Origin: a virus
Direction: 5' to 3' (one strand)
Length of the DNA: 64,000 bases
Virus record (IMG/VR): IMGVR_UViG_3300045988_145033
Coordinates: 1-64,000 of that record
Made by a program: the position numbers and the translations under genes. Below are positions 246-51,517 of this stretch, piece after piece (within the stretch, counting starts at the first letter, position 1; the number at the start of each line of letters is the position of its first letter). Below the pieces are notes generated by a model. The model had not been told where the DNA came from, searched no databases, and saw nothing but the letters and a program-made list of their open reading frames with translations.

Positions 246-295
246 TCCTCCTTAAAATTTTATTTTACCTCTCGGCTACTTATATAATATATAGA
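246..295 (-). promoter_or_regulatory. early-type promoter box (minus-strand TATATATTATATAAGTAG) + conserved leader GCCGAGAGGTAAAATAAAATTTTAAGGAGG (family A)
   Basis: near-identical element recurs at 10796-10848, 39236-39285 and in variant form at 12883-12897, 14895-14908, 35742-35756, 5370-5388. Confidence 0.5.
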
Positions 296-302
296 CAAAA
301 TA

Positions 303-1529
303 TTAAACACGTACAATTTTTAATATATCTTTATCGTATAACATTTCATCGTTATATTCTATTGGTACTATCTTTTCTATAGTTTCCATATCAATTTTTA
401 AATATGGAACGTATGTCGCCTCAGGAAGCAAAGCTTCTGAGCACATACGTAAACTATGCTGTTGTTCGATAATTTGTAAGTCTTTTAAAACCTTCATTTC
501 TGTTATAAGTATTATCTCATATACAGGCTCAAGTATTTCAAACTCACCTGACGATAAATATAAAACTCTTGGAAGTCTATACTCAAGCTCATCTATTTCC
601 TGCATATCTTTTATTATAGTTGCAGGAGATTCCTTTCTTTGAGATATAAGGTTATAACTTTCAGCTATAGATTTTAAGAAAGGTTCTATCATCTTTATAC
701 AAATCTTATGTAGAGTATCTTCTTCCTTTATATCTGTCAAAATATCTCTTATAGCCATAATACATTTTATTTGATTTACCTTATCTAAATCGACCATAGT
801 GAAATCTATACTATCGTAAGCAAGTTTAAGCATTTCCTCTTTCGACATAGCCATATCATACAAAGGGTTATAATCATCATCTTCTTCGTCCTCCTTAATA
901 TCTTCTGGTAATTCGTCTACTGCATTTATTGCATCCCCTATAAGATATATCATCTTTTTAAAATCGGGCTCTCTATCCTTTAAACAAGAGGAACATAGAT
1001 TTTCAATAATATATGAGTAGTTCTTATTTGTTATTATAGTTCTCATAAACATAGAGGAATACTCAACTGATGCGTTTTCTATTATCTCCATAAGTTTATC
1101 ACAAAATGTCATTATATTTGTAGAAGTTATAATATAAGGTACAGTTTCAAAACCTTGTGAACGCATATGCTGAATAGCTATATCGCAAAGCTCTACTATA
1201 TCATCTCTATATTCATCAGCTGTTTCTACATTCATATTATGAACTATAGCCTCTACTGTTTCCATAAGTCCAGAGTATACTTTAAACTCGTCCTTTAGCT
1301 CCATTATAATATACTCTCTTTTAATTTGAGGAGCGTCCTTAAATGTGGCTGGATACTTCTTAGCTAAATTATAAAGTATTACTGCGTTATCTTCCCAAGT
1401 ATAAATATCTGATGCTCTAAAGTTTTCATACATCTCATCAACTATAGCTGGTGATTTAGTTACAAGATATGTATTTGATAGCTGTTCGTATCTTGCAACC
1501 TCACTATTTCCTAGAAATCCTTTTTCCAT
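303..1529 (-). CDS. hypothetical protein (408 aa)
   Basis: long ORF in minus-strand gene array; no recognisable motif. Confidence 0.7.
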   Translation of the reverse strand: MEKGFLGNSEVARYEQLSNTYLVTKSPAIVDEMYENFRASDIYTWEDNAVILYNLAKKYPATFKDAPQIKREYIIMELKDEFKVYSGLMETVEAIVHNMNVETADEYRDDIVELCDIAIQHMRSQGFETVPYIITSTNIMTFCDKLMEIIENASVEYSSMFMRTIITNKNYSYIIENLCSSCLKDREPDFKKMIYLIGDAINAVDELPEDIKEDEEDDDYNPLYDMAMSKEEMLKLAYDSIDFTMVDLDKVNQIKCIMAIRDILTDIKEEDTLHKICIKMIEPFLKSIAESYNLISQRKESPATIIKDMQEIDELEYRLPRVLYLSSGEFEILEPVYEIILITEMKVLKDLQIIEQQHSLRMCSEALLPEATYVPYLKIDMETIEKIVPIEYNDEMLYDKDILKIVRV

Positions 1530-2001
1530 TATCCTTTCCTACCTCCATAACATATTTCTCAATAAGTGGAATACTATCATATAATCCTTTATCACTATAA
1601 AGTATCGAAAGACGAATAGGTATCTTATCGCCATTTGATAATTTAAGAATATAATACTCGTCCATTCTATATAGCATTCCATAAGTTTCATTTTCTTCTC
1701 TCTTTTTAAATTCAACCTCTATTATCTTATTTCCTACAAGTTTTTTCATCTCTTTTATTATATCTTTATATCCATAAGCATCACTCGTTCCCGTGCATGA
1801 TAGTATTATATAATCTGTACACTCTCTTGGTTTTATAAGTGATACCTTTCCTTTTTTATGATATATAACGAAGTTTGTCGTAGACGTATCAATAAGCTTC
1901 TCTTTCATATCTTCAGTATTGTAACCAAATATTCTTCTACCCTTTATAGGCTTATAAATCTTTACAGCTTCTATTGTACGTCCTATAAGTTTTGTAAGCA
2001 T
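1504..2001 (-). CDS. hypothetical protein (165 aa)
   Basis: ORF, 26-nt overlap with downstream gene typical of phage operons. Confidence 0.65.
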   Translation of the reverse strand: MLTKLIGRTIEAVKIYKPIKGRRIFGYNTEDMKEKLIDTSTTNFVIYHKKGKVSLIKPRECTDYIILSCTGTSDAYGYKDIIKEMKKLVGNKIIEVEFKKREENETYGMLYRMDEYYILKLSNGDKIPIRLSILYSDKGLYDSIPLIEKYVMEVGKDNGKRISRK

Positions 2002-2011
2002 ATTGTCCTCC

Positions 2012-2413
2012 CTAAATATTTCTTAGATTATTAAAAGCGTATATCATAGCACCTATTGATTTAGATGTAGGTAAGTTTATTATTTTCTCAGGTTTAAATT
2101 CATAACTTCTTTTACAACCATTTGCAATACATAGTATAAACCATAAATCTACAGATTTATATAAATCAAATGATAATGTCTTAGGAGATGAAGTGTACTT
2201 ATTAATCTCCGTTTCAGAAAGCTCTACCTGCATAGTTTCTAAATACTGTGGTAGTACATCTGTAATTAGACTATTCTCGACATTTTTAAGTCTAAATGTA
2301 TCTATTCTTATATTGTCATTCTGAGACTCTATATAATCACTAAGTGATATAAAACGGGTATTCTTATTAAGCATTATTGTCTCCTTCCACGTATACACAA
2401 AGCTCATTATCAA
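2012..2413 (-). CDS. hypothetical protein (133 aa)
   Basis: ORF in same operon. Confidence 0.6.
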   Translation of the reverse strand: MIMSFVYTWKETIMLNKNTRFISLSDYIESQNDNIRIDTFRLKNVENSLITDVLPQYLETMQVELSETEINKYTSSPKTLSFDLYKSVDLWFILCIANGCKRSYEFKPEKIINLPTSKSIGAMIYAFNNLRNI

Positions 2414-2726
2414 GATTAGAAGTTAGTAGCGTTACTACAACTTCATTATTGAAATTCATGTATATACATTTATAATCGTATCTTATCTTTTCTGATACTG
2501 TAAGTTTAGTTATAACCTTTCTTCTAAGTTTTCGCACAAACTCATCTAAGCCACCATCTATACTTGACGGATACTTAGTTTTAAAGTGAACTACCATATT
2601 ATCATCAAGCTCTAGTGAGAATAAGTCATCGTCGTGTAATCTTCTCTTATTATATTTATTAGGTGATTTATGTATCTTATATATCTTGTACATAGTAATA
2701 CAAGACAAGTCTTCTATCTTAATCAT
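2367..2726 (-). CDS. hypothetical protein (119 aa)
   Basis: ORF in same operon. Confidence 0.55.
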   Translation of the reverse strand: MIKIEDLSCITMYKIYKIHKSPNKYNKRRLHDDDLFSLELDDNMVVHFKTKYPSSIDGGLDEFVRKLRRKVITKLTVSEKIRYDYKCIYMNFNNEVVVTLLTSNLDNELCVYVEGDNNA

Positions 2727-3225
2727 ATACTACCTCACCCCCAATAGGGACTTTATGAGGTATATGCCAAATAACTAGATTTCTTGTATCTCCGTCTAAG
2801 AATATTCCCAAAAGTAAATCCCCAACATTTACAGCTACATCATTTAGATTATAGTAATGTACTTTACGAAGATTAGATTGTCCTATGTGTTTATGAAAGT
2901 GTCCTCCTGATTTTATTATAGGTCCGGGTGGAATAGATGAATACATTTCTTCAATCCACCAATCTTCTGCCGCTTCTGCATCTATATCTCCGTCGTGATA
3001 TATTCTATAATCTGTACCATTTTTAGCCTTTATTTCCATTACGGCTACACCGTCTTTTGTATCGGTGTCTAGTCCCAAAACTGGAACTTTTACATAAAAA
3101 TAGGGGTCTGTGATTTTACCAGCTTTAGTGGCAAAACACGATACCCCTCCTAAAGGTATATTAGTATCCATTTTGTAAATCCCCTGCCTTCTATTAATAT
3201 TTCCTAGTAAAATGTTCCAAAACAC
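2719..3225 (-). CDS. hypothetical protein with H-x-G-D ... G-G-H-F-H-K-H motifs (possible M23/LytM-like or other HxH metalloenzyme)
   Basis: YHDGDID and SGGHFHKH resemble the HxGxD / HxH zinc motifs of M23 peptidases, spacing imperfect. Confidence 0.3.
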   Translation of the reverse strand: MFWNILLGNINRRQGIYKMDTNIPLGGVSCFATKAGKITDPYFYVKVPVLGLDTDTKDGVAVMEIKAKNGTDYRIYHDGDIDAEAAEDWWIEEMYSSIPPGPIIKSGGHFHKHIGQSNLRKVHYYNLNDVAVNVGDLLLGIFLDGDTRNLVIWHIPHKVPIGGEVVYD

Positions 3226-3239
3226 GTCAAAACTTGTGT

Positions 3240-3251
3240 AACAGCCTCATA
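3240..3251 (+). promoter_or_regulatory. AACA-N6-TA late-type promoter motif 23 nt upstream of gene start
   Basis: AACAgcctcaTA; same motif class upstream of six other operon-initial genes. Confidence 0.35.
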
Positions 3252-4410: not shown

Positions 4411-4417
4411 AAAAATA

Positions 4418-4563: not shown

Positions 4564-4565
4564 AT

Positions 4566-10040: not shown

Positions 10041-10790
10041 TTACTCCTCTTTCTTATCTTCATAAACTTCAAAGATATTTTCTATCTTATCATCTAGGAT
10101 ATTAGAACCTAGTTCTTTATGAACATCTTTAATTATATCTATAAGAAGTTCTTTAGGTCCATTACTTACAAGAATTGCTAGTTGTCTGTCTATAATTTCT
10201 TCGTCATCTGCTATATAGTTATAAACTTGTCTTGTTAGTTCTCTTATAAGTTTCTTTCTCATATAAGGTTCACCGTAGTTATCTACAATCTTATAATCTA
10301 AGAAATCTAAATCATTACGAAGTTTAAATTCGTCATCAAATAAGGCTTCGTTATCCACACGGTTTCCAAGTATATTTATACCGAACATATCACACATTTC
10401 CATATAAGCTACGTCACCTTGCTTATAGATATATGTATTGTAAACAGCTTTAATTTCCTCTACAGTCTTTTCATCTGTATGCTCATTGGTTTGTACTATA
10501 ATCACTGGGTTATTAAAATAATATCCTATTTCTCCACACATAGCAGCATATAAAGAAGCATCACGAAGTGTATCATATTCACTTTCGACATCGTCACTTC
10601 CAACCATAGTAATTGTATTTAGAATTATTACCGATAAATCCAAGAAATCAAAATCCATTGTATTATTTGGTTCATTCGCATATAGATTTTTATGGTCGTA
10701 ATAATATGATGCTATAACGTTTAATCCTTTCACCCCCTTTAATTCTGCTAATACATTTTCAAATCTTTCCTTTTTAGTTAGATTTTTCAT
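10041..10790 (-). CDS. hypothetical protein (249 aa)
   Basis: ORF with own family-A promoter and terminator. Confidence 0.65.
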   Translation of the reverse strand: MKNLTKKERFENVLAELKGVKGLNVIASYYYDHKNLYANEPNNTMDFDFLDLSVIILNTITMVGSDDVESEYDTLRDASLYAAMCGEIGYYFNNPVIIVQTNEHTDEKTVEEIKAVYNTYIYKQGDVAYMEMCDMFGINILGNRVDNEALFDDEFKLRNDLDFLDYKIVDNYGEPYMRKKLIRELTRQVYNYIADDEEIIDRQLAILVSNGPKELLIDIIKDVHKELGSNILDDKIENIFEVYEDKKEE

Positions 10791-10795
10791 TTTTG

Positions 10796-10848
10796 TTCCT
10801 CCTTAAAATTTTTTATTTTACCTTTCGGCTACTTATATTATATATACT
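10796..10848 (-). promoter_or_regulatory. early-type promoter box + family A leader/RBS
   Basis: TATATATAATATAAGTAGCCGAAAGGTAAAATAAAAAATTTTAAGGAGG on minus strand. Confidence 0.5.
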
Positions 10849-10865
10849 TATATTTTCTCGAATAA

Positions 10866-10901
10866 TAAAAAAAAAAAAATAAAGGCTAGGAAAACCTAGC
10901 C
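10866..10901 (-). terminator. intrinsic terminator ggctaggTTTTcctagcc + 14-nt U-run; identical hairpin at 36591-36623
   Basis: perfect 7-bp stem, long T-run on transcribed strand. Confidence 0.75.
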
Positions 10902-10909: not shown

Positions 10910-11608
10910 TTATCCTATATATGGACCAATAAACGTTGTACTGAATGTGTCTTTCGCTATCTTTCTATCTAGCTCATATTCATGATGATAGAAACCATAT
11001 TTTTCTAAAAGAACTTCAATCTTATCTATTTCATCTCCATATGGTAATTCGTCGTATCTACCATTATGGTGGTTTAAATCCCAAGTATGACACATATAGA
11101 TTTTATCATAGAACTTATCTTCTAACTTTTTCTTATTGAATTCGTCTATAGCATAGATTAAACTGTCATAAGTTTTAGAAGATATTTTAGATTTAATGTC
11201 AGCCAAATCTGCTTCAGTTATTTCCAGTTTTTCTATATCATGAAATAGTCTAGTATAGTTATTTGTAATAACTCTTTTAAGACAATCTTCGTTACTTTCA
11301 AATACTGGTTTTTTGGCATCTTCAGAATAACCACTTTCATAGTATTCTAACTTTCTTCTGTAGTCACTATTCTTAGATTCTAATTCGTATGCTAAACTAT
11401 AAACTGGCGAATAATATCCGCAATATTTAATATCGACTAAATCTTGATATTCTTCTTTATATTGCTCTTTAAGATATCTTTCAAGTCTTTCAGCTTTAGC
11501 CTTAAGTTCGGGATTATCTTCTAAAAATCTTTCAATAAAATTTCCGTAAGCCTTTTGTCTTTCTTTCTTTTCACACATCATTCTTCTTTCAATTTTTTCA
11601 TCTCTCAT
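10910..11608 (-). CDS. hypothetical protein (232 aa)
   Basis: ORF with family-B leader upstream. Confidence 0.65.
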   Translation of the reverse strand: MRDEKIERRMMCEKKERQKAYGNFIERFLEDNPELKAKAERLERYLKEQYKEEYQDLVDIKYCGYYSPVYSLAYELESKNSDYRRKLEYYESGYSEDAKKPVFESNEDCLKRVITNNYTRLFHDIEKLEITEADLADIKSKISSKTYDSLIYAIDEFNKKKLEDKFYDKIYMCHTWDLNHHNGRYDELPYGDEIDKIEVLLEKYGFYHHEYELDRKIAKDTFSTTFIGPYIG

Positions 11609-11614
11609 TTTCGA

Positions 11615-11690
11615 TTCCTCCTAAATGTTTTTAAAATTAAATTTTGGCTTCTCCCCATTGGATTGCCTTTATCTTAGTATATAATATATG
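11615..11690 (-). promoter_or_regulatory. early-type box + family B conserved leader (AAGGCAATCCAATGGGGAGAAGCCAAAATTTAATTTTAAAAACATTTAGGAGG)
   Basis: about 75-nt element repeated at 36492-36563 and 37205-37280 with only 4-5 substitutions. Confidence 0.55.
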
Positions 11691-11721
11691 TATTAAATTA
11701 TAAATGATGTAAGGATAGTAG

Positions 11722-11751
11722 AAAAAAAAAAATGTGGGAGTTATCCCACAT
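11722..11751 (-). terminator. intrinsic terminator atgtgggaTAACtcccacat + 11-nt U-run
   Basis: hairpin overlaps stop codon of gene 11751..11987. Confidence 0.7.
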
Positions 11752-11987
11752 TAATCTTCATCATCTTCTTCGTCGAGTATCTCGTATATTCTATCATGAA
11801 ATAAGTATACGTTATCGTTAGACATATATTCATGATACGCTCTTTCTAAAAGCTCTTCATCATCACAGCATCTTTCATAACTAAATAAAGCCTTTATAAA
11901 CGTTTTATAATTCGGTCCGTCTGCAAGTCTTGCTATTTCATGTTTCATTTCTTCTACGGTATATTTTGGTTCTGTTGCTTTCTTCAT
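11751..11987 (-). CDS. small acidic protein (78 aa)
   Basis: ORF; C-terminal EEDDED tail. Confidence 0.55.
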   Translation of the reverse strand: MKKATEPKYTVEEMKHEIARLADGPNYKTFIKALFSYERCCDDEELLERAYHEYMSNDNVYLFHDRIYEILDEEDDED

Positions 11988-12070: not shown

Positions 12071-12826
12071 CTACTTTTTACCAAATCCTAATCCTATTCC
12101 ACCTCTTTGTCCGAAGCTTCCTAATACACTTTCAGGGTAGTTACCTCTTACATACGGATGGTCTCCACATCTGTAAGCTTCAGATAAGATAACTGGACCT
12201 TGTAATACACTCTCAACAACCATTTCTGCCTTTTGTTGTTTTATGAATTTCAAGATTTGATACATATTCCAATAGCACACTTTGTTATGTGCAACTCCTC
12301 TTAAGAAATCTTGACATCCAGCAATTTGTCTTAAGAATGAGTTATATATGAAATAGAAGTTATTAACTACATGCTTTTGAATTATTCCTTGTTCGCAAGC
12401 GAGTGCTAAGAATGATTCATAATCATCATAAACTATTACATGCTCAGCAGCGTTATTTTCTTTAACGACTCCTGTAACACCAGTTGATATAGCTGATATA
12501 AATTTCACATCAGCGTAATCATTTATTTCTCCAATCTTTTCTTTAAGTTCTCCCATTTCTTTATCTATTATAGGAAGACCTTGTACTATCTTGTCTTTAG
12601 GTACTCCTATAATGATTGTATCAAAATGATTGAAATTATGACAGTCAGCAAAGCTATAAGCTTCTATAGCTCTTCTTACTGGGTCAACTTCAATTTCCCA
12701 AGATAGGTCAGTGTTGACCAATACTAATAATAATCTCTTATTACTTTCTTTACAGTTCTTTTGTAAAGCATAGTAACCTCTTTCTTCAAAAATTCCCTTT
12801 ACTGTGTTGATTGTTTGTTTGTTCAT
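12071..12826 (-). CDS. hypothetical protein (251 aa)
   Basis: ORF; own promoter box at 12883-12897. Confidence 0.65.
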   Translation of the reverse strand: MNKQTINTVKGIFEERGYYALQKNCKESNKRLLLVLVNTDLSWEIEVDPVRRAIEAYSFADCHNFNHFDTIIIGVPKDKIVQGLPIIDKEMGELKEKIGEINDYADVKFISAISTGVTGVVKENNAAEHVIVYDDYESFLALACEQGIIQKHVVNNFYFIYNSFLRQIAGCQDFLRGVAHNKVCYWNMYQILKFIKQQKAEMVVESVLQGPVILSEAYRCGDHPYVRGNYPESVLGSFGQRGGIGLGFGKK

Positions 12827-12918
12827 AATATGAACCTCCTTTAAATTTTTATTTGACTTCGGGTTATTTCCCTTGTCTTACTCTTATAATATATGTATCA
12901 AAATATGAATGCTGCAAG

Positions 12919-14273: not shown

Positions 14274-14855
14274 TTACATTTTTAAATCTTGTTTCATAAA
14301 TTCATCAAGAGAACCGTATAGTTTTTCTATTCCATATTTTTCACAACCTACTATAGATATAAGCGATTCGTGATACAAAGCATAATATAAAGGCTTTACG
14401 AACTTATCTTTAGTTAGGCTCATAGAAATTTCAGTGAAAAACTCATCAGGTGTATCTATCATCTTTTGATGAACGAATGGGAAATCTTTCGATGATAAGA
14501 AATGAGAACCGTTTAAGACATACCAATATATCTCATTTTCTTTATCCGATTTAAGATAAGTAGTTTCAATATTTCTAATCTTATCAAGAATATCCTTATC
14601 CTTTATCTTTTCAGATTTATAAATAAGTATATAGTTCTGATTGTTAATTTTAGAAATATACTTAATCACAATCATCATAGATACAAACTTTCTGTATTCT
14701 ATAGTATGGTCCTCAAAGGAAGCTTTATCATAAAATACGATATTAAGCCTTCCTTTTCCATTTGAGCTTTCTAAAAAGTTAAGTATTGGCGGAATCGTTT
14801 CATCTTCCGTCCTTAAGTTTAAATACTCCTCTTTAAATTTTTGAAAATCGTTCAT
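14274..14855 (-). CDS. hypothetical protein (193 aa)
   Basis: ORF; promoter box 14895-14908. Confidence 0.65.
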   Translation of the reverse strand: MNDFQKFKEEYLNLRTEDETIPPILNFLESSNGKGRLNIVFYDKASFEDHTIEYRKFVSMMIVIKYISKINNQNYILIYKSEKIKDKDILDKIRNIETTYLKSDKENEIYWYVLNGSHFLSSKDFPFVHQKMIDTPDEFFTEISMSLTKDKFVKPLYYALYHESLISIVGCEKYGIEKLYGSLDEFMKQDLKM

Positions 14856-14915
14856 TTTAATTCCTCCTTAAAATTTTATTATTGTGCCGCTTCATTTATA
14901 ATATATAGCTGAGTA

Positions 14916-15407: not shown

Positions 15408-15748
15408 ATAAGTTCCTTTTTATTAGAAGTATATGCTGTGAACCCACGGTTTAGCATAACTTCTATTGATTGAAAATTGTCGAGAGACTTAAATACATAA
15501 GACCCTCTTTCCATTTTTTCTTTATCAATTTTCCACGCTGAAAAACTATTTAGATTAAAATCCTTTTTGTAATATAGAAGTTCTATCATTCTAATCAGTT
15601 TCTCATCCTGACTAGATTTGTAATACTCTATAGCTTTTCTCATAAGCTTTTCTTTTTCAGATTTAGTCAATTCAACTAAACCTTTTGTAGAAAGAATTTC
15701 ATAAAAGTTTTCAATCTTCTTTCTAGTATTTTTTAATTCTTGTAGCAT
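15398..15748 (-). CDS. hypothetical protein (116 aa)
   Basis: ORF; promoter box 15796-15810. Confidence 0.6.
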   Translation of the reverse strand: MLQELKNTRKKIENFYEILSTKGLVELTKSEKEKLMRKAIEYYKSSQDEKLIRMIELLYYKKDFNLNSFSAWKIDKEKMERGSYVFKSLDNFQSIEVMLNRGFTAYTSNKKELMEI

Positions 15749-15838
15749 GGTTATTCCTCCTTAGTATTCTTAAGTTTACCTTTGTCTTCTTCTATTACAA
15801 TATATAATCAAAAAAAAAAACTAGCAGGAACATTCAAA

Positions 15839-31514: not shown

Positions 31515-32046
31515 TTTCAAATGCCTCCTTTATAATAGTTACTCCAAAAATATTAAGATTATGTATTCTTTCTTGTAAGTCAAACAATTCTTCTCCGAAC
31601 AATAACCCATTTTTCATACCATTTTTACCTATACTCGTTTTATACACATAATCGCAGAAAGCTATTGCACCTTTATGCTCAAGCTCATCTTGATGTGCTA
31701 AACCACCACTTAAATATAAAACTGTATATAATCCAGTCTTATCGACTTTAATATGTTTATTCATAAATACATCTTTAGGTCCTAGCAGTACAAGAGTTAT
31801 ATTACTATTCTTTTCATCGTCACGAATATTTATAATACTATTTCCACCACTTTCTAAATGCTTCTTAGCTAGTATATTTGTAAGAATATTCTGTATAGCT
31901 CTCATTCTAAATCCTAGAGTATCTTCCTTTACATACTTGTCTCTATTCCTTTCTACATCTTCAACTTTCTCTCTCAAGTTCTCAATAGTGTGTCCTTTTA
32001 TTAAAGATTCACCGTTATTAACTTTTCTTTTTGCTTTTCTACCCAT
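31498..32046 (-). CDS. hypothetical protein (182 aa)
   Basis: ORF; 17-nt overlap with downstream gene. Confidence 0.6.
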   Translation of the reverse strand: MGRKAKRKVNNGESLIKGHTIENLREKVEDVERNRDKYVKEDTLGFRMRAIQNILTNILAKKHLESGGNSIINIRDDEKNSNITLVLLGPKDVFMNKHIKVDKTGLYTVLYLSGGLAHQDELEHKGAIAFCDYVYKTSIGKNGMKNGLLFGEELFDLQERIHNLNIFGVTIIKEAFENELNK

Positions 32047-32118
32047 TTTCTTCCTCCTTAAAATTTTAAATATATTGGGTAGGTTTCCCTACCCAATTCT
32101 TAGTTTATAATATATAAG
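32047..32118 (-). promoter_or_regulatory. promoter-like box TTATATATTATAAAC followed by leader hairpin ttgggtaggGAAAcctacccaa and extended RBS
   Basis: unusual order box-hairpin-RBS (elsewhere hairpin precedes box). Confidence 0.35.
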
Positions 32119-35444: not shown

Positions 35445-35697
35445 TTGAATCCTCCCAATTATTAAATATTACTCTTTTTATAATCTTACTAAGCTTTTGA
35501 TTAAAAGCCTTTTTAACAAGATTATTCTCCGATAGAAGCTCTTTTCTATACTTTACAAAAGCTTCTCTTTCATATTCAGACTCCTCAGCCTGAATATCCT
35601 TCCAATCTTTCATAAACTCATCATAATCCTTTTCAATATCAAGGTTCATAATTCTCTCATTGAATTTCCTTACAATTTCTTTAGTTACTTTCTTCAT
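35434..35697 (-). CDS. hypothetical protein (87 aa)
   Basis: first ORF of early-type unit, promoter box 35742-35756. Confidence 0.5.
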   Translation of the reverse strand: MKKVTKEIVRKFNERIMNLDIEKDYDEFMKDWKDIQAEESEYEREAFVKYRKELLSENNLVKKAFNQKLSKIIKRVIFNNWEDSNEE

Positions 35698-35780
35698 TTT
35701 AATTCCTCCTTAAAATTTGTATTATTTAATCGTTTGCTACATTTATAATATATATGTCAAATATTGTTATTTTGGAACAT

Positions 35781-35812
35781 AAAAAAAAATAAAGGTGAGG
35801 ATAAACCCCACC
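35781..35812 (-). terminator. intrinsic terminator ggtggggTTTATcctcacc + U-run (copy 2)
   Basis: identical to 10015-10033. Confidence 0.7.
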
Positions 35813-35819: not shown

Positions 35820-36479
35820 TTATTCTTCTTCAATATCATCTTCATCATCACAACCAAAGAAATCATCAAAGAAGTATTGAGGCTCTATATATTCATACCC
35901 TCTTTTGATTTCTCTAGTCAGTCTATGACTATCTTTGATTGTGAACCAGTACACATTGCCCACATCAAATACTTGTCCATTTGAAAGGACTATAAGTTCG
36001 TCCCATTCTCCAGAACCATATCTGATTTTCTTATGTCCATTAGGCATGTAGAAATAATGTTCAGTACCATCACTGAAAGTGTACTTTTCCCACTTCTTTG
36101 AATTGTGTGGGTTGTACAAACCTCTTATAGTTTTCCAGATGTACTTACTATTAATAATACAATAGTCATCTGGATGATTTGTATATTTCAACTTTTCTGC
36201 ACCACTTAATATCTTGCCATAGTCTCCAATCCATAGATACGGACTTAATACTGTGATTGCAGAAATATTGAATTTTTCACATTCCTTTATTATTAAAGAA
36301 ACGTACTTCATATTTCTGCTGTGATATTTCTTTAGAGAAGCTCTGTACTTTCTATCTCTGTCTGATATAACTTCTCCAAAGTAACTTACATCGAATCCAG
36401 CAATCTTTGCGATTTTTCTGAATTCTTTAACTAATTTTTCATCTTCCCATTTTTCTTTTAAGTTTGCAAATTTGTTCAT
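35820..36479 (-). CDS. hypothetical protein (219 aa)
   Basis: ORF with family-B leader. Confidence 0.6.
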   Translation of the reverse strand: MNKFANLKEKWEDEKLVKEFRKIAKIAGFDVSYFGEVISDRDRKYRASLKKYHSRNMKYVSLIIKECEKFNISAITVLSPYLWIGDYGKILSGAEKLKYTNHPDDYCIINSKYIWKTIRGLYNPHNSKKWEKYTFSDGTEHYFYMPNGHKKIRYGSGEWDELIVLSNGQVFDVGNVYWFTIKDSHRLTREIKRGYEYIEPQYFFDDFFGCDDEDDIEEE

Positions 36480-36491
36480 AATTAAAACCTC

Positions 36492-36563
36492 CTAAGTTTT
36501 ATTAAAATTAAATTATGGCTTCTCCCCGTTGGATTGCCTTATCTACGAATATAATATATAAAC
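36492..36563 (-). promoter_or_regulatory. early-type box + family B leader (copy 2)
   Basis: see 11615-11690. Confidence 0.55.
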
Positions 36564-36590
36564 AAAAAAAAAATAACGTGAATAGGATAA

Positions 36591-36623
36591 TAAAAAAAAA
36601 ATAAAGGCTAGGAAAACCTAGCC
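36591..36623 (-). terminator. intrinsic terminator ggctaggTTTTcctagcc + U-run (copy 2)
   Basis: identical to 10884-10901. Confidence 0.75.
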
Positions 36624-36630: not shown

Positions 36631-37197
36631 TTACTTATTTGGTATTAGATTGCTGTGTCTCTTTTTGTGTCTAAGAGACTTATAAAGAATAAGAAAGCTT
36701 GATAACTTAACTTTAACCTTCTTATTCTTTTTAAAGCAAATTTTAGCACTATTTAAGCCTTGAGGGATTTTTGTAAGAATATACCCCTTTCCAGCTTTAT
36801 ATTCTAAAGTTTCCCAGTCAGGAACAGCCTTTTCAACTTTGTTCCCGATTTTAAAAGTTTCTGTGAAGTTAGTAGCAACTCCACGTTTCAAATCTACAGA
36901 ATAGTAACCACCGTGTTGCCATAGTGATACTATGTCGGCAGTTTTTAATTCTTTCTCAAAATATTTTATATCACGAATGTACCCGTCCCAAACCATTTGA
37001 AATGGTCCTTCGTAGTAGATACAATCGTAGTCTTGATAACAAGTTTCAGGCTTGCCTCTGTATATACAAGACTTTTTGCTGTGTCTTATACTTCTTTTAC
37101 CGAAGTATAAATCGAATGTAGGCTCAACCCTTGTAGCCTCATCGAACATGATTTTCCCTAACTTTCTCATTTTTGCAACCAATTTAATATTTCTCAT
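36631..37197 (-). CDS. hypothetical protein (188 aa)
   Basis: ORF with family-B leader. Confidence 0.6.
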   Translation of the reverse strand: MRNIKLVAKMRKLGKIMFDEATRVEPTFDLYFGKRSIRHSKKSCIYRGKPETCYQDYDCIYYEGPFQMVWDGYIRDIKYFEKELKTADIVSLWQHGGYYSVDLKRGVATNFTETFKIGNKVEKAVPDWETLEYKAGKGYILTKIPQGLNSAKICFKKNKKVKVKLSSFLILYKSLRHKKRHSNLIPNK

Positions 37198-37204
37198 TTC
37201 TAAA

Positions 37205-37280
37205 ACCTCCTAAAGTTTTTAAATTAAATTATGGCTTCTCCCCATTGGATTGCCTTTGTCTTAGTATATAATATATAAAC
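37205..37280 (-). promoter_or_regulatory. early-type box + family B leader (copy 3)
   Basis: see 11615-11690. Confidence 0.55.
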
Positions 37281-37309
37281 AAAAAAAAAAATACTGTAAG
37301 AATAATAAA

Positions 37310-37349
37310 TAAAAAAAAAAAATAAGAGGACGGGCGTAGCAAACCCGTC
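37310..37349 (-). terminator. intrinsic terminator gacgggTTTGCTACGcccgtc + 15-nt U-run
   Basis: hairpin + T-run on minus strand. Confidence 0.7.
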
Positions 37350-37359: not shown

Positions 37360-38112
37360 TTAGAAGATTTCGAAACCACCTTTCCAGTAGTTTCTAGTCC
37401 CTATCTTAAGAGTAGGAAACTCTTCCTTTATCGCTTGTGCGATATGAGTAACATCGTCCATTTCGGGCACGGGGAAATCACACCCTTGGACTTTATTATA
37501 CTTTCTAAGCGTCCAGAATACATTATCGAACTTAGATATGACACTTGCGATTTCTCTAAGTTCGTCAAGGCTTGTGTCTCCGAATACTGGAGTTCTTATA
37601 TCAACTAAAACTCCATTTTCTTGACACAATTTAATAATTCTTTCTTGGTCCATAACTGGTTTGGCAACTCCAGTTATTTTAACCAATCTGTCACTATAGA
37701 ATGCCTTGAAATCTATAGCAACATAGTCTAGGTATTTTACTAGACTTTTAACTAGCCCATAACTGCTACCATTATGAGCTATTGATATTTTTTGTCCAAA
37801 TTTGTTCATTACATATTGGGCTATATGTAATGATTCAGAAGGATAAGCCGCGGGGTCTCCCCCGCTTAATCTAATCCTTCTTCCTTTAGAAGCTTCAATA
37901 TCTATCAAAGCTTCTAAGTCACTCATTTTAATGTCGTGAGTGTTGATGACGTTGCCAGCATCATCGTAGAATTGACAGTCCCTTTTACAGTAAGGACAAC
38001 TGTAATTACAATCACCAAAAGAAACGATTGCCATTTCTTCTGGTGTTCTATTGAATGCTTGTAGGAAGTAAGCCTTTCTCACTTCCAAATTTTTTCTTTT
38101 AATTAATTTCAT
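37360..38112 (-). CDS. radical SAM activating enzyme, NrdG-like (anaerobic ribonucleotide reductase / glycyl-radical enzyme activase family)
   Basis: CNYSCPYC (CxxxCxxC) cluster and RIRLSGGDPAAYP matching NrdG GISLSGGDPLHP. Confidence 0.6.
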   Translation of the reverse strand: MKLIKRKNLEVRKAYFLQAFNRTPEEMAIVSFGDCNYSCPYCKRDCQFYDDAGNVINTHDIKMSDLEALIDIEASKGRRIRLSGGDPAAYPSESLHIAQYVMNKFGQKISIAHNGSSYGLVKSLVKYLDYVAIDFKAFYSDRLVKITGVAKPVMDQERIIKLCQENGVLVDIRTPVFGDTSLDELREIASVISKFDNVFWTLRKYNKVQGCDFPVPEMDDVTHIAQAIKEEFPTLKIGTRNYWKGGFEIF

Positions 38113-38119
38113 TTTGTTA

Positions 38120-38204
38120 CCTCCTCAGGTATATTAAATTTAGACGGTGAGCTCTTAAGCCTTCTTAAGTTTACTCTTGTCCCTACATTTATTATATATA
38201 ATTG
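38120..38204 (-). promoter_or_regulatory. early-type box + family C conserved leader containing hairpin CUUAAGAAGGCUUAAG
   Basis: homologous about 85-nt element at 51075-51160 with compensatory C/G swap in hairpin closing pair. Confidence 0.55.
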
Positions 38205-38257
38205 AAAAAAAAACGTAGAAATTACAGCTAATGATTAAAGGAACATAGAAAAAATAA

Positions 38258-38305
38258 GAGAAAGTATACTCTTATATCACCTCCTTGAGTATCTTTCTCT
38301 TAAAA
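38258..38305 (-). terminator. intrinsic terminator (14-bp stem agagaaagatactc / gagtatactttctct) + U-run after micropeptide ORF
   Basis: long near-perfect inverted repeat followed by TATTTTTTCT on minus strand. Confidence 0.6.
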
Positions 38306-38307: not shown

Positions 38308-38376
38308 TTAAAGCCTAGTAATTGTCCAAATTGCCGCTATGGCGTAAGCCGCCAACATTAATACTAATGCGAACAT
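38308..38376 (-). CDS. 22-aa hydrophobic micropeptide MFALVLMLAAYAIAAIWTITRL with own promoter, RBS and terminator
   Basis: AAAGGAGGTGCCAT-ATG RBS, early-type box 38419-38438, terminator downstream. Confidence 0.45.
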   Translation of the reverse strand: MFALVLMLAAYAIAAIWTITRL

Positions 38377-38448
38377 ATGGCACCTCCTTTAAATTATCCC
38401 GGTGGAACTTTCATTCCGTGGGTTCTACATTTATTATATATAATTAAA

Positions 38449-38479
38449 ATAAAAAATAAAGGTGAGGATAAACCCCACC
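38449..38479 (-). terminator. intrinsic terminator ggtggggTTTATcctcacc + U-run (copy 3)
   Basis: identical to 10015-10033. Confidence 0.7.
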
Positions 38480-38488: not shown

Positions 38489-39229
38489 TTATTCTATACA
38501 ATACATCTTCGCACAAATATCTAAAATTGTTGCAATCATTTCTATGAAGTAGTCTTCCTTATCTAATAAGTAATCATCTACTAATGTCTCAAGGTCTTCA
38601 CTATCATAACTGTGTCCAAAATAGCTATCAACTACCTTATCTCTTATTTCGTAGATATTTTGCTCTGATATTCTTTCAGTAAATAATCCAAACCATATTC
38701 TTTCAGCTTGAGCTTTAATATCACTATAACCATATTTATCTCTTAAATCTTTATTAGATGTGTAATCACGTTCACAGAATTCTTTATACATCCTCTTAGC
38801 ATTTACTATAAGTGTAGTATCTATATCCCAAGGTTTCTTGTTAAGTTTTGCTACAGTTTGTTTATCTTTCCAAGGTTCGCAGATATTACATACAGTTTGT
38901 AAAAGAGCAAGTCCAACAACAGCAGATGTTGAATATATCTCAGTTTCTCCATTATCAAAATAATTCTTTGAGTATCTCTCTAAATCTGAAGCTTGTAAAT
39001 AATCATCTCTGATTTCATTGTCGATTACTTCATTACATATATAGCTTATAGCATTACTATCTAATCCTCTAAATAAAGAATTCCATAAATAATGTACCTC
39101 ATCTCTAAATTCTTCAAACTCGTGTGCACATTCTACCCAAGCTACTTCATTATTTGGTTTATCCCATACTCCAAATAGATACATTCCTTTTTCAAATAAC
39201 TCCTTCTTTAACACTGCTTTAATTTTCAT
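38489..39229 (-). CDS. hypothetical protein (246 aa)
   Basis: ORF; family-A-like promoter 39236-39285. Confidence 0.6.
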   Translation of the reverse strand: MKIKAVLKKELFEKGMYLFGVWDKPNNEVAWVECAHEFEEFRDEVHYLWNSLFRGLDSNAISYICNEVIDNEIRDDYLQASDLERYSKNYFDNGETEIYSTSAVVGLALLQTVCNICEPWKDKQTVAKLNKKPWDIDTTLIVNAKRMYKEFCERDYTSNKDLRDKYGYSDIKAQAERIWFGLFTERISEQNIYEIRDKVVDSYFGHSYDSEDLETLVDDYLLDKEDYFIEMIATILDICAKMYCIE

Positions 39230-39284
39230 TTCAATTCCTCCTTAAAAATTTTAATATGACTTTCGTCTACTTATATAATATATA

Positions 39285-39316
39285 GAAGAAAAGAATAATG
39301 GTGGCTAAGCCACCAT
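39285..39316 (-). terminator. terminator hairpin atggtggcTAAgccaccat
   Basis: 8-bp stem downstream of 124-aa gene. Confidence 0.55.
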
Positions 39317-39321
39317 CTTAA

Positions 39322-50822: not shown

Positions 50823-50833
50823 TTATTTCACCT

Positions 50834-50845
50834 CAAAAGGCTGTT
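50834..50845 (-). promoter_or_regulatory. AACA-N6-TG motif (AACAgcctttTG) abutting helicase RBS
   Basis: minus strand; would give near-leaderless transcript. Confidence 0.25.
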
Positions 50846-50879
50846 TTTCACAATTTTAAAACAAAAAAAAAAGAGGAAC

Positions 50880-51068
50880 TTAATCCCCTTTGTGTTTGTT
50901 GAAGTAGTACCATGCGTCTGCCCACATAGTAAGCAGAGCACCACTCCATCTTAGACTAGCTAAGACTTTGATTCCGGCGATTGCTGTCGCCAAAGTTATA
51001 ATACCGAAATATATCACAGTCATTATAGTGGCTGCGATAAGCATAGCAATGATTTGTAGATTTTTCAT
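50880..51068 (-). CDS. small membrane protein, 2 TM (62 aa) with own family-C promoter/leader
   Basis: ORF + leader 51075-51160. Confidence 0.5.
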   Translation of the reverse strand: MKNLQIIAMLIAATIMTVIYFGIITLATAIAGIKVLASLRWSGALLTMWADAWYYFNKHKGD

Positions 51069-51074
51069 ATTGTA

Positions 51075-51160
51075 CCTCCTTAAGGTATTAAATTAAGACT
51101 GTAAGCTCTTAACCCTTGTTAAGTTTACTCTTGTCTTCTACTATTATTATATATAATTGA
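51075..51160 (-). promoter_or_regulatory. early-type box + family C leader (copy 2, hairpin CUUAACAAGGGUUAAG)
   Basis: see 38120-38204. Confidence 0.55.
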
Positions 51161-51202
51161 AATGAAAAATTAAGGAACGTAGATAAAAAAAATAGAATAT
51201 CT

Positions 51203-51463
51203 TTACGGGCAGAAGATATCTATTATATCGTCCAAGCAGTCAAGAATAACCGCAGCTATCTTTCCGATGAACGATTTCTTTTGAAGTTTCTTTATCACCC
51301 TGTCCTTTCTTGCGTCCATTTTGTCTATATAATTGAAGATAAACCTAGCCAATGGACTCCATCTAAGTCTCTTCTTTAAAACCTTGTACGCGTAACTCTT
51401 AACAATGTCGCCCGCAGCATATGTCAGAGCTTTACGTACGAATAAACCGAATAGATACCACAT
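51203..51463 (-). CDS. hypothetical protein (86 aa)
   Basis: ORF with box 51497-51514. Confidence 0.5.
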   Translation of the reverse strand: MWYLFGLFVRKALTYAAGDIVKSYAYKVLKKRLRWSPLARFIFNYIDKMDARKDRVIKKLQKKSFIGKIAAVILDCLDDIIDIFCP

Positions 51464-51517
51464 GATATCACCTCCTTTTAACTCGGCTATTCCTATTATT
51501 ATTATATATAATTGAAA

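Follow-up and report, generated by a model that had tools for sequence, protein, structure and literature searches.

The regulatory elements described here most likely constitute a reusable cassette, in which a terminator, a promoter, a folded 5' leader and a strong ribosome site are placed together before unrelated early genes. The window (the whole stretch of 64,000 nucleotides that was analysed) comes from a Fusobacterium nucleatum phage of ~180 kb, and it is ~90% identical to the Fusobacterium phages JD-Fnp4, JD-Fnp1, JD-Fnp6 and JD-Fnp7. Its AT-rich boxes are probably (roughly 75%) early promoters read by the phage's own virion RNA polymerase (vRNAP), in cassettes with structured leaders and within a two-polymerase programme of the type of Bacillus phage AR9. 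The folded leaders, which are conserved sense-strand RNA structures, are the less expected part of the result.

Boxes and cassettes of the window

The motif TATATATWATANNNNNAG, allowing at most one mismatch, is found 17 times in the window against 3.0 expected, a number reached by 0/100 shuffles. Fourteen of these matches, together with a two-mismatch copy at 12878-12895, make up the boxes considered here, with the form TATATATWAT-(6N)-AG (n=15). All 15 are intergenic and lie on the minus strand, and each is followed by a co-oriented start codon at a distance of 47-88 nt (box start to ATG), which bears out the sequence-only reading, which had proposed an AT-rich box before at least 14 minus-strand genes. 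In the aligned consensus a T-rich tract at -13..-5 is followed by TATATATWATAWWNGWAG; the invariant stretch comprises 11 nt (TATATATWATA) plus G/T-n-A-G, motif position 16 being A in 15/15 copies and position 17 G in 14/15. The weakest copy, in cassette 4, reads CATATATTAT...AA, that of cassette 6 reads TATATATTGT, and two subtypes, TATATATTATATA.. and TATATATAATAAATGT, follow the division into leader families. A short transcription unit begins at each box and is in most cases ordered as 5' stem-loop, A/U-rich AAUUU(U)AA element and AAGGAGG Shine-Dalgarno (SD) sequence 6-8 nt before the AUG. The cassettes are as follows, with predicted starts (+1) and hairpins:

Cassette 1, 236..293 (-), family A: box 276-293; +1 A277; 5' hairpin 267-276 (CC-GAGA-GG); AAUUUUAA 252-259; SD GGAGG 247-251; ATG 238-236; gene runs past the left window edge; no terminator, the box abutting the stop of gene 303-1529.
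Cassette 2, 10788..10901 (-), family A: terminator hairpin 10884-10901 plus T-run; box 10829-10846; +1 10830; hairpin 10820-10829 (CC-GAAA-GG); AAUUUUAA 10803-10810; SD 10798-10802; ATG 10790; predicted to drive 249-aa ORFan 10041-10790.
Cassette 3, 11606..11752 (-), family B: terminator 11731-11752; box 11673-11690; +1 11674; hairpin 11646-11667; AAAUUUA 11638-11644; SD 11617-11621; ATG 11608; predicted to drive 232-aa ORFan 10910-11608.
Cassette 4, 12824..12895 (-), two-helix leader named 'D': no terminator; box 12878-12895; +1 12879; hairpin 12855-12877 (GAC/GTC plus GGG/CCC); SD 12835-12839; ATG 12826; predicted to drive a 251-aa ORFan.
Cassette 5, 14853..14907 (-): no terminator; box 14890-14907; +1 14891; no predicted hairpin; AAUUUUAA 14868-14875; SD 14863-14867; ATG 14855; predicted to drive a 193-aa ORFan.
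Cassette 6, 15746..15825 (-), truncated family C-like leader: T-run 15807-15825; box 15789-15806; +1 15790; marginal predicted hairpin only, 15772-15782 (-0.3 kcal/mol); SD 15756-15760; ATG 15748; predicted to drive a 116-aa ORFan, an unrelated ORF taking its place in JD-Fnp4.
Cassette 7, 32044..32116 (-): box 32099-32116, abutting the upstream gene's stop; +1 32100; strong 10-bp GAAA-loop hairpin 32074-32097 (-17 kcal/mol, z -4.5); AAUUUUAA 32058-32065; SD 32053-32057; ATG 32046; predicted to drive 31498-32046, and probably 29661-31520 too.
Cassette 8, 35695..35812 (-): terminator 35794-35812; box 35737-35754; +1 35738; leader unstructured; AAUUUUAA 35710-35717; SD 35705-35709; ATG 35697; predicted to drive an 87-aa ORF and the overlapping nvRNAP (non-virion RNA polymerase) beta' C-terminal subunit gene 33516-35444.
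Cassette 9, 36477..36623 (-), family B: terminator 36606-36623; box 36543-36560; +1 36544; hairpin 36517-36538; AAUUUAA 36508-36514; SD 36488-36492; ATG 36479; predicted to drive a 219-aa ORFan.
Cassette 10, 37195..37349 (-), family B: terminator 37329-37349; box 37260-37277; +1 37261; hairpin 37233-37254; AAUUUAA 37224-37230; SD 37206-37210; ATG 37197; predicted to drive a 188-aa ORFan.
Cassette 11, 38110..38301 (-), family C: long terminator hairpin plus T-run 38249-38301; box 38183-38200; +1 38184; three-helix leader hairpin 38142-38182; AAAUUUA 38135-38141; small ACCU..AGGU hairpin over the SD, ~38123-38127; ATG 38112; predicted to drive radical-SAM gene 37360-38112.
Cassette 12, 38308..38479 (-): terminator 38461-38479; box 38425-38442; +1 38426; hairpin 38398-38422; AAUUUAA 38389-38395; SD 38383-38387; predicted to drive the 22-codon hydrophobic mini-ORF 38308-38376 (MFALVLMLAAYAIAAIWTITRL).
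Cassette 13, 39227..39317 (-), family A-like: terminator 39297-39317; box 39267-39284; +1 39268; hairpin 39258-39267 (GAC-GAAA-GUC); AAUUUUUAA 39242-39250; SD 39237-39241; ATG 39229; predicted to drive a 246-aa ORFan.
Cassette 14, 51066..51195 (-), family C: T-run 51182-51195 without clear hairpin; box 51138-51155; +1 51139; three-helix hairpin 51095-51137; AAUUUAA 51088-51094; SD 51075-51079; ATG 51068; predicted to drive a 62-aa membrane-like ORF; entire cassette missing in JD-Fnp4.
Cassette 15, 51461..51558 (-): hairpin 51537-51558 without good T-run; box 51493-51510; +1 51494; short, essentially unstructured leader; SD 51471-51475; ATG 51463; predicted to drive an 86-aa ORF, an unrelated ORF taking its place in JD-Fnp4.

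The extended ribosome site AAATTTTAAGGAGG, with up to two mismatches, gives 13 matches against 1.9 expected, 8/13 of them in cassettes, in agreement with the long conserved Shine-Dalgarno context previously described.

Phage polymerases and promoter classes

Within the window, ORF 33516-35444 matches PHROG 3015 'RNAP beta subunit' (4.6e-27), chain 7S00_D of the solved AR9 nvRNAP (6e-23) and AR9 g154, the nvRNAP beta' C-terminal subunit. JD-Fnp4 carries homologues of both AR9 multisubunit RNA polymerases, virion and non-virion: g5 matches AR9 g189, the vRNAP beta (E 8e-40); g84 matches g145 (4e-42) and g264 (2e-35), annotated in AR9 as the vRNAP beta' N-terminus and a vRNAP C-terminal subunit; and g1, g27 and g124 match the nvRNAP subunits g270, g089 and g154, respectively. 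The vRNAP genes, seen in the ~90% identical JD-Fnp4 only, lie outside the 64 kb window, and that the enzyme is packaged into virions is an assumption made by analogy with AR9 and phiKZ. RNAP subunits of AR9 and of this phage share only about 24-30% identity.

The 10-nt box core TATATATTAT is identical to that of the AR9 vRNAP early promoter, which was mapped experimentally and has the consensus AAATATATATTAT-(6N)-G+1; annotated AR9 promoters hold this same core. It also contains TATATTAT, a motif of Staphylococcus phage MarsHill found upstream of 29 genes. AT-rich motifs can converge, a point against the vRNAP reading. In a whole-genome scan of JD-Fnp4, 32 strong sites (PWM score >=17) were obtained, 31/32 on one strand, the lone opposite-strand site mirroring a palindromic forward box. 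Every strong box is intergenic or confined to the final 9 nt of a gene, and a co-oriented gene starts 51-92 nt downstream, except for one box before the mini-ORF. Broadly, boxes in the window and in JD-Fnp4 stand before nvRNAP subunit genes (in JD-Fnp4, g27 and g123-124) and ORFans; none was found in JD-Fnp4 before the vRNAP genes g5 and g84, nor before the genes for portal, sheath, terminase and protease. Genes without a box carry instead the late consensus of AR9, AACA-(6N)-T(A/G), present in 38/73 box-less upstream regions versus 1.7% of random 90-nt windows; 13/24 of its occurrences in the window are intergenic, a compartment making up 6.8% of the sequence. Core identity with AR9, the distribution of boxes among genes and the late consensus at box-less genes thus make a vRNAP early promoter the most likely identity of the box, and comparative evidence (AR9 RNAP homologues in JD-Fnp4, the shared core and a second, AR9-late-type motif) favours the phage-specific polymerase suggested in the sequence-only reading. 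Both the start site and the temporal class of the boxes we infer from sequence and from analogy with AR9.

The main rival is a sigma-70 host promoter relying on its -10 element. The box would then be an ordinary early promoter of host RNAP with the primary sigma, TATAAT/TATTAT serving as the -10 and the upstream T-rich tract being UP-like, and the phage polymerases would act later only. Sigma-70 -35/-10 type sites are not enriched (31 vs 37 expected; 30 vs 34). The claim that the box does not fit sigma-A calls for two caveats. Box positions 4-9 (TATWAT), followed by 6 nt and the invariant A, form a good -10 hexamer in canonical geometry, at the correct distance from the predicted start. Furthermore, in F. 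nucleatum a pronounced -10 box goes with an only weak -35 box at ~89% of primary TSSs (PMC11005410), so that a missing -35 is no bar to the host enzyme and poor fit to sigma-A is insufficient by itself against it. Host RNAP would also qualify as the enzyme that nvRNAP genes need before nvRNAP exists. On the other hand, the invariant stretch runs 4 nt upstream of the -10 hexamer, where extended -10 sigma-70 prefers TG, and the core is identical to that of AR9-clade vRNAP promoters; full vRNAP beta and beta' homologues, kept in JD-Fnp4 under late-type signals, would be roleless if the host made early RNA; and early transcription in AR9 needs no new protein synthesis, being attributed to the injected virion RNAP. 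Host recognition is unlikely, though the main rival.

A middle promoter, at which a phage sigma-like or activator protein redirects host RNAP (as do T4 MotA/AsiA or SPO1 gp28), is highly improbable. The motif is indeed strongly conserved and specific to the phage, it does not resemble a full sigma-70 promoter, and the two box subtypes could mark sub-classes, but neither annotation nor searches revealed a sigma or MotA-like gene, the third promoter class required to precede the boxes was not found, and the boxes drive nvRNAP subunit genes, the first transcribed class in AR9 and phiKZ systems.

Under the preferred vRNAP reading, built on homology and analogy, a multisubunit vRNAP would be packaged in the virion and injected with the DNA, would recognise TATATATWAT centred near -10, and would start transcription at the invariant A that precedes a G, 6 nt downstream of the box. 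Early products would include nvRNAP subunits, after which the nvRNAP may read the AACA-(6N)-T(A/G) promoters before replication and virion genes.

Folded leaders

The three leader families of the sequence-only reading all recur as repeats in the window. Family A is exact at 262-279 and has one mismatch at 10815-10832, with looser copies at 14852-14916 and 39227-39291 (repeat family D1). Family B (n=3: 11617-11732, 36488-36560, 37204-37319) shows 85% identity over 104 nt in the 11629/37216 pair and 77-91% over 53 nt (D5, D6). The two family C copies (38132-38181, 51086-51135) are 90% identical over 50 nt (D19), and a partial third lies at 15757-15786 (D8).

A stem-loop starting 0-8 nt after the predicted +1 was found in 34/40 box leaders (~85%; mean z -1.86), while late leaders are unstructured (mean z near 0). 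Folding is better on the sense than on the antisense strand in 29/37 (p = 4e-6), and 23/265 predicted pairs are G.U; the 'percent paired' figure of alignment A2 is inflated, because the MFE fold of each individual sequence went into building this alignment. Such a hairpin is not a requirement, since 6/40 leaders lack it, including that before the nvRNAP beta' operon. Family C folds into a hairpin of three helices, whose covariation over 31 copies is strong: 15/19 pairs change on both sides, and compensatory cells number 104 vs 27.5 in shuffles (slid controls 0-10). The family is also kept in a clade with a beta' of only 65% identity, and has no Rfam match.

A role of the leaders as stability or translation elements is plausible, and 5' stem-loop and strong ribosome site together might yield long-lived, efficiently translated early mRNAs. 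For family C, mRNA stability, translation or factor binding may be considered, its invariant unpaired bases suggesting that a specific factor also binds it. It is improbable that the hairpins, instead of stabilising the 5' end or binding a factor, are attenuators or processing sites such as those for RNase III between the early genes of T7. Hairpins with internal loops do lie between short early genes, and a U-rich stretch follows hairpin 32074-32097; against this, most hairpins have no U-run, the units are already separated by terminators, and under an AR9-type start the hairpins begin 0-8 nt from the transcript 5' end. Helices of 3-7 bp broken by loops are, besides, short for RNase III.

Terminators and module duplication

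Terminator-like sites are enriched (16 vs 2.5 expected; 7 vs 1.1), and the terminator hairpins themselves form repeat families (D2, D7, D10). The proposal that each gene is flanked by the T-run hairpin terminator of the previous one holds for part of the set: a clear hairpin plus T-run lies just upstream of 8/15 boxes, where it would insulate the unit from the upstream gene, and a partial one upstream of 3 more, but four boxes (293, 12895, 14907, 32116) directly abut the upstream gene's stop codon.

Duplication of whole regulatory modules is well supported: the largest direct-repeat families of the window are intergenic regulatory modules, genes behind the same leader family show no mutual similarity (blastp, E<=1e-3), and 9/10 downstream genes tested had no Pfam or PHROG match. 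Modules of terminator, promoter and leader would thus have been copied in front of unrelated ORFans. Comparison with JD-Fnp4 reveals ~9 indel/replacement events, 4 of which end at a cassette; between related phages, cassettes coincide with gene-replacement/indel breakpoints, a situation resembling that of the PeSL cassettes of T4-type phages.

Box motif, polymerase genes and late-type motif

The AT-rich box that precedes many minus-strand genes of the window (TATATATWAT-(6N)-AG, with the invariant A as the predicted transcription start) is a true recurrent element, as the sequence-only reading had claimed: TATATATWATANNNNNAG with at most one mismatch is matched 17 times in the window against 3.0 expected, a number not attained by any of 100 shuffles. 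The 15 copies retained are all intergenic and all on the minus strand, 47-88 nt upstream of a minus-strand start codon. Once aligned, they present a T-rich tract at -13 to -5 followed by TATATATWATAWWNGWAG, position 16 of the motif being A in 15/15 and position 17 being G in 14/15, and no -35-like hexamer is found among these 15 sequences. The extended ribosome binding site (RBS) described together with the box was confirmed as well, with 13 matches in the window against 1.9 expected.

The window has a G+C content of 31.5% over its 64 kb, and four Fusobacterium nucleatum myophages with genomes of 175-180 kb (JD-Fnp4, JD-Fnp1, JD-Fnp6, and JD-Fnp7) are ~90% identical to it. A PWM derived from the 15 window boxes was run over the whole JD-Fnp4 genome (cut-off score of at least 17), giving 32 sites, 31 of them on one strand; the one on the opposite strand mirrors a forward box as a palindrome. 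All sites are intergenic, one falling in the final 9 nt of a gene, and they are situated 51-92 nt upstream of a co-oriented gene, except for one before a mini-ORF. Among the JD-Fnp4 genes with a box upstream are g27 and the g123-g124 operon; no box was found upstream of g5, g84, the portal, sheath, terminase and protease genes, or any other recognisable virion gene of this phage.

Neither polymerases nor promoters are mentioned anywhere in the paper describing the JD-Fnp phages, and the polymerases of JD-Fnp-type phages are likewise absent from a 2026 jumbo-phage review. Bacillus phage AR9 possesses two multisubunit RNA polymerases (RNAPs), one of the virion (vRNAP) and one non-virion (nvRNAP), and homologues of subunits of both were found as follows.

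RNA polymerase subunit genes in the window and in JD-Fnp4
Window 33516-35444, minus strand: RNAP subunit gene; PHROG 3015 "RNA polymerase beta subunit", 4.6e-27
JD-Fnp4 3468-7922: g5, 1484 aa; AR9 g189 (vRNAP beta), 8e-40, tblastn
JD-Fnp4 83950-86742: g84, 930 aa; AR9 g145 and g264, 4e-42 and 2e-35, tblastn

The ORF at 33516-35444 has a further match in chain D of the AR9 non-virion RNAP structure (7S00; 6e-23), and by tblastn its only matches are AR9/PBS1-type jumbo phages of Bacillus, Staphylococcus, and Listeria; its AR9 counterpart is g154, the nvRNAP beta' C-terminal subunit, upstream of which an "early promoter" is annotated in the AR9 genome. After retrieval of the complete JD-Fnp4 genome and the annotated AR9 genome, JD-Fnp4 proteins were compared with AR9 by tblastn. 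Virion-type beta and beta' homologues are present in this ~90% identical phage besides the non-virion set, in which g1, g27, and g124 match the AR9 nvRNAP subunits g270, g089, and g154. The AR9 genes g145 and g264, annotated as the vRNAP beta' N-terminus and a vRNAP C-terminal subunit, both correspond to the single ORF g84. JD-Fnp4 thus carries one long ORF each for vRNAP beta and beta' (1484 and 930 aa), whereas in AR9 and phiKZ these subunits are divided into several intron-split or separate pieces. Only the g124 homologue among the JD-Fnp4 RNAP subunit genes falls within the window; PDB sequence searches with the window ORFs 29661-31520 and 24447-26204 yielded no extra subunit, Pfam and PHROG searches with the large window ORFs were mostly empty, and no homologues of the nvRNAP beta N-terminal subunit or of the promoter-specificity subunit (AR9 g226) were detected in JD-Fnp4.

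Genes without a box are frequently preceded by a second motif, AACA-(6N)-T(A/G), which is the late (nvRNAP) consensus of AR9 (PMC5312081). It occurs in 38 of the 73 box-less upstream regions of JD-Fnp4, compared with 1.7% of random 90-nt windows, and among the genes so marked are those for both parts of the DNA polymerase, the portal, the sheath, the terminase, and the prohead protease. Of its 24 occurrences in the window, 13 are intergenic, intergenic sequence amounting to 6.8% of the total; the motif is often longer here (AAAACA..TTTTG).

Intergenic late-type motifs in the window
3240-3251, plus strand
8383-8394, plus strand
15839-15850, plus strand
39745-39756, plus strand
43962-43973, plus strand
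45274-45285, plus strand
50845-50834, minus strand
39738-39727, minus strand
8359-8348, minus strand

The motif stands before the genes 15875(+), 39776(+), 43978(+), and 45315(+), the helicase gene 49320-50822(-) and the sheath gene, and marks the sheath, DNA polymerase, and helicase genes of the window together with further box-less genes. The late consensus is unusually clear in this phage; in Staphylococcus phage MarsHill, a late motif was not found de novo. It also raises the question of whether uracil-containing DNA occurs in this phage too, since AR9 nvRNAP depends on deoxyuridine at positions -11/-10 of its AACA promoter, and uracil-DNA is found in all close RNAP relatives (AR9, PBS1, S6, and MarsHill). 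No evidence of uracil-DNA functions was found, the AR9 Ugi, dCMP deaminase, and deoxyribonucleotidase having no tblastn homologue in the window phage or JD-Fnp4.

Two further observations concern sites of this class. A near-canonical sigma-70-type promoter (TTGACA, 16 nt, TATGTT) is situated at 8383-8410(-), upstream of the tail sheath gene and ~25 nt ahead of the late motif at 8359-8348, and is overlapped by an opposite-strand late motif. Elsewhere in the window, a 653-nt gap without genes at 43325-43977(-), which is kept in JD-Fnp4, contains four tandem late-type motifs (43940, 43744, 43610, and 43444); behind each of them come a TTTTAGGCGTCC-like motif and a strong GC hairpin, with GGTAGGCGAAAGCCTACC occurring twice. 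From this arrangement, the gap looks like a set of four small late-expressed RNAs of ~120-185 nt; it has no tRNA or Rfam match.

The enzyme that would read the box

The early consensus of AR9, AAATATATATTAT-(6N)-G+1, derives from dRNA-seq and primer-extension mapping and has been assigned to the injected vRNAP (PMC5312081), and in MarsHill TATATTAT is found upstream of 29 genes. The box shares with the AR9 early promoters the identical 10-mer core TATATATTAT, which contains the MarsHill motif and is also present in the annotated AR9 early sites, followed after the same 6 nt by a purine start (here the invariant A/G, 6 nt after TATWAT). As in AR9/PBS1-type phages, the motif is intergenic, co-oriented with the downstream gene, and placed before nvRNAP subunit genes (AR9 g154 corresponding to window 33516-35444); both vRNAP and nvRNAP subunit homologues and the second promoter class AACA-(6N)-T(A/G) are likewise common to AR9. 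The strongest argument for assigning the box to the early, vRNAP class is that the two motifs divide the genes as they do in AR9. The differences are that AR9 starts with G and this phage with A-G, that the box lacks the AAA by which the AR9 motif is extended at its 5' end, and that position 7 admits A as well as T. Furthermore, the host phylum is Fusobacteriota, and the genome (~180 kb) lies under the 200 kb "jumbo" line. On this comparison, the box is best filed with the vRNAP early promoters of the AR9 clade, a reading to which we assign a probability of roughly three in four.

The sequence-only reading had held that the box does not fit a sigma-A promoter. A -35 consensus is indeed missing, but TATAAT or TATTAT is found in the box exactly 6 nt before the invariant A, as would be expected if the host RNAP with sigma-70 read it as a -10-reliant promoter. 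Moreover, in F. nucleatum promoters the -10 box is reported to be pronounced and the -35 box only weak (PMC11005410), so the lack of a -35 element is compatible with such a host promoter. We nevertheless regard recognition by the host enzyme as rather improbable: the invariant 11-mer of the box reaches upstream of the -10 hexamer, where sigma-70 prefers TG; the bases at the start site show conservation; the box and the AR9 clade have an identical core; and the vRNAP genes are kept under late-type signals. A sigma-70 scan of the window adds weak evidence in the same direction, as -35/-10 sites are not enriched and a weak 9/12 match is found at only three boxes. The vRNAP assignment is thus preferred, and the earlier suggestion of a phage-specific polymerase gains support from the AR9-clade core and the vRNAP homologues; the finding was correct and its interpretation essentially right.

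Other injected polymerases offer partial parallels. The early promoters of phiKZ-type phages (Chimalliviridae) also consist of an AT-rich motif of ~10 nt near -10 with the start 6 nt downstream, are read by an injected vRNAP and drive nvRNAP genes (PMC7598289, PMC13282480). Their consensus is different, however, and the late promoter here is of AR9 type (AACA...) and not the phiKZ TATG. The virion RNAP of phage N4 is a single-subunit enzyme, and uses a DNA hairpin upstream of the start. Early genes served by an injected polymerase and hairpins at promoters recall that system, but an N4-like DNA-hairpin promoter was rejected: the hairpins described below lie downstream of the start, vary in size, contain G.U pairs and fold better as the sense strand, all of which indicates RNA.

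The AR9 programme of vRNAP, nvRNAP, and early and late promoters would hence extend to F. nucleatum phages of ~180 kb; in the literature compared, an AR9-type system had not been described for this host phylum and genome size. It would also provide a transcription map for phage-therapy candidates, with 15 early promoters predicted for the window and, for JD-Fnp4, 31 and a palindromic mirror site.

Structured leaders and the family C element

Leaders were folded taking the invariant A as the predicted +1 (window and JD-Fnp4, n = 40). In 34 of the 40, a stem-loop begins 0-8 nt from the predicted 5' end, and the box leaders as a whole have a mean z of -1.86 against dinucleotide shuffles (27/40 below -1.5), whereas late-type leaders are short and unstructured (mean z ~0; 1/27 below -1.5). 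Folding favours the sense over the antisense strand in 29 of the 37 distinct leaders (p = 4e-6), and G.U accounts for 23 of the 265 predicted pairs; both features argue that the structure belongs to the transcript. Conserved 5' hairpins of this kind, found in most box leaders, were not seen in 34 AR9 early leaders.

The three leader families proposed earlier do exist, and the largest direct-repeat families of the window are these very modules. Family A has a GNRA loop (GAGA or GAAA) on a 3-bp stem that lies 1-2 nt from +1, family B a bulged hairpin, and family C a three-helix hairpin of 40-45 nt; a further type, "D", has two nested helices. In all of them AAUUU(U)AA comes next, and AAGGAGG stands 6-8 nt upstream of the AUG (two cassettes have 3 and ~10 nt). 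For families B and D, orthologous cassettes of the window and JD-Fnp4 show, by eye, compensatory changes of GGC/GCC to GAC/GUC and of GGG/CCC to GAG/CUC. Known RNA families did not account for these structures: the whole window gave no match in Rfam 15 at the gathering threshold, relaxing to E<=1 over 35650-39350 returned only chance-level matches (E 0.17-0.66, far below gathering scores), and no tRNA or tmRNA genes are found in the window.

A hairpin a few nt from the predicted 5' end together with a very strong Shine-Dalgarno (SD) sequence recalls known mRNA stabilisers, such as ompA/papA-type hairpins, the SP82 polypurine element, or hbs-type stabilisers. RppH requires at least 2-3 unpaired 5' nt (PMC3997798), and ~21 of the 34 stem-loop leaders, i.e., about half of all leaders, have two or fewer, counted from the predicted +1; such a 5' stem-loop would block RppH-type 5'-end conversion and 5'-end-dependent RNases. 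Very strong SD sequences can also stabilise mRNA through bound ribosomes (references in PMC3997798; hbs), and those of the cassettes may contribute to stability in this way. Family B departs from 5'-terminal stem-loop stabilisers in having 6-7 unpaired 5' nt. Structured, covarying leaders on early transcripts are without precedent in the literature compared, and their presence on early and not on late transcripts leads one to ask what stabilises or controls the mRNAs that an injected polymerase makes.

In family C, helices P2 and P3 are separated by an AAA/A internal loop that does not vary; P2 closes with U.G or U-A, and the terminal loop is ARGG. A box-pattern scan of a viral contig collection gave mostly chance AT-rich matches; the loci around beta' homologues were productive instead. 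In a second IMG/VR clade, with a beta' only 65% identical, the box and family C are both kept. An in-register alignment of 31 copies (30 distinct), N-padded and guided by each sequence's own MFE fold, is 100% paired by construction, but the diversity of its pair types, at positions anchored by invariant flanks, does not arise in that way. Fifteen of the 19 pairs change on both sides, and compensatory cells number 104 against 27.5 +/- 4 after shuffling, falling to 0-10 when the 3' partner is slid; covariation extends to all six pairs of P3, where a single position can show as many as six pair types. This alignment replaced plain MAFFT with RNAalifold on nine family C leaders, which recovered P2 and P3 with P1 mis-registered. 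The resulting covariance model, run over both strands of 494 kb (window, JD-Fnp4, and AR9), retrieves box-associated copies only, with no match in AR9. Readings of family C as a K-turn or a pseudoknot were dropped, the sequences fitting them inconsistently by eye.

In family C leaders the SD is additionally covered by a small ACCU..AGGU hairpin (-4 to -5 kcal/mol), the closing pair of which covaries by eye. A generic stabiliser would not need conserved unpaired bases such as the AAA/A internal loop and the ARGG loop; these, together with the SD hairpin, suggest something more specific than a stabiliser. We tentatively propose, as a possibility held with limited confidence, that the hairpin leaders, above all family C, constitute an undescribed class of cis-regulatory RNA that tags transcripts of the injected vRNAP for a dedicated phage or host factor. 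Such a putative factor might selectively handle or protect early mRNA, might shut early mRNAs off in time, or might act as a translational switch through the SD-masking hairpin.

Cassette modularity, gene turnover and other genes

Each of the 15 cassettes of the window places a box, a leader, and a strong SD before a minus-strand start codon. That a terminator precedes each gene was only partly sustained: terminator-like sites are enriched 6-fold in the window, but a clear one stands directly upstream of 8 of the 15 boxes only; four boxes adjoin the preceding stop codon. The largest direct repeats of the window are RBS-leader-box units, terminators, and the box with its upstream tract. Genes behind leaders of the same family have no mutual similarity by all-against-all blastp; gene duplication was therefore rejected as the origin of the repeated leaders, which agrees with the earlier claim that whole regulatory modules were duplicated. 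Box subtype tracks leader family, implying that promoter and leader were copied together. Nine of ten tested driven genes are without Pfam or PHROG match, the tenth being a radical-SAM enzyme.

The comparison of the window with JD-Fnp4, a single genome pair, reveals ~9 indel or replacement events, four of which end at a cassette.

Events ending at a cassette, window versus JD-Fnp4
Box 15806: ORF behind the box replaced
Box 32116: N-terminal region behind the box differs
Box 14907: one gene inserted exactly at the RBS/ATG
Box 51510 to the next late promoter: one JD-Fnp4 ORF versus two unrelated cassettes in the window

PeSL cassettes of T4-type phages, which combine a terminator stem-loop and an early promoter, have been associated with shuffling (PMC2839356, PMC4122927). 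Like them, the modules described here are composite conserved units of ~100 bp with a terminator stem-loop and an early promoter, present in many copies. PeSLs also flank ORFans and coincide with indel or replacement breakpoints between close relatives, and the modules may do likewise (4 of ~9 events in one genome pair); such cassette-linked gene turnover would resemble PeSL-mediated shuffling. An identification with PeSL was nonetheless rejected, as the PeSL promoter is a full sigma-70 promoter (-35 and -10) for the host RNAP and the box has no -35 consensus; the present module further has a structured leader that is transcribed, and its RBS context is conserved. As insulated, portable expression units, the cassettes could be useful for a genetically intractable host.

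Two small loci illustrate the variety of these arrangements. A hydrophobic 22-codon mini-ORF at 38308-38376(-) (MFALVLMLAAYAIAAIWTITRL), conserved but unannotated in JD-Fnp4, is served by a complete cassette (terminator, box, hairpin leader, and SD) and is followed by its own long terminator. At 11985-12034, a strong terminator (12018-12034(-)) is directly followed by the RBS and the 78-aa gene 11751-11987, with neither box nor late motif in between; judging from this layout, the gene could only be expressed by read-through.

Outside the cassettes, the region most divergent from JD-Fnp4 is 16947-21772 (plus-strand genes 16505-21774), 65-68% identical or not alignable between flanks of 84-91%; its large ORFs (725, 439, and 581 aa), for which Pfam and PHROG gave no match, may be host-range or tail-fibre genes. 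The ORF at 55946-63949(-), of 2667 aa, has an upstream region that reaches the right edge of the window. Its counterpart is JD-Fnp4 g101 (2978 aa, "papain-like cysteine protease"). The product, a short stretch of which has a match in the tape-measure gene region of AR9, is probably a tape-measure or tail-lysin protein. Two distant genes encode the exonuclease and catalytic parts of the family-B DNA polymerase (39776-42001(+) and JD-Fnp4 g99), a split also known from AR9 (g132 and g152), with which this phage further has in common a GroEL-like chaperonin (46513-48426) and an SF2 helicase (49320-50822).
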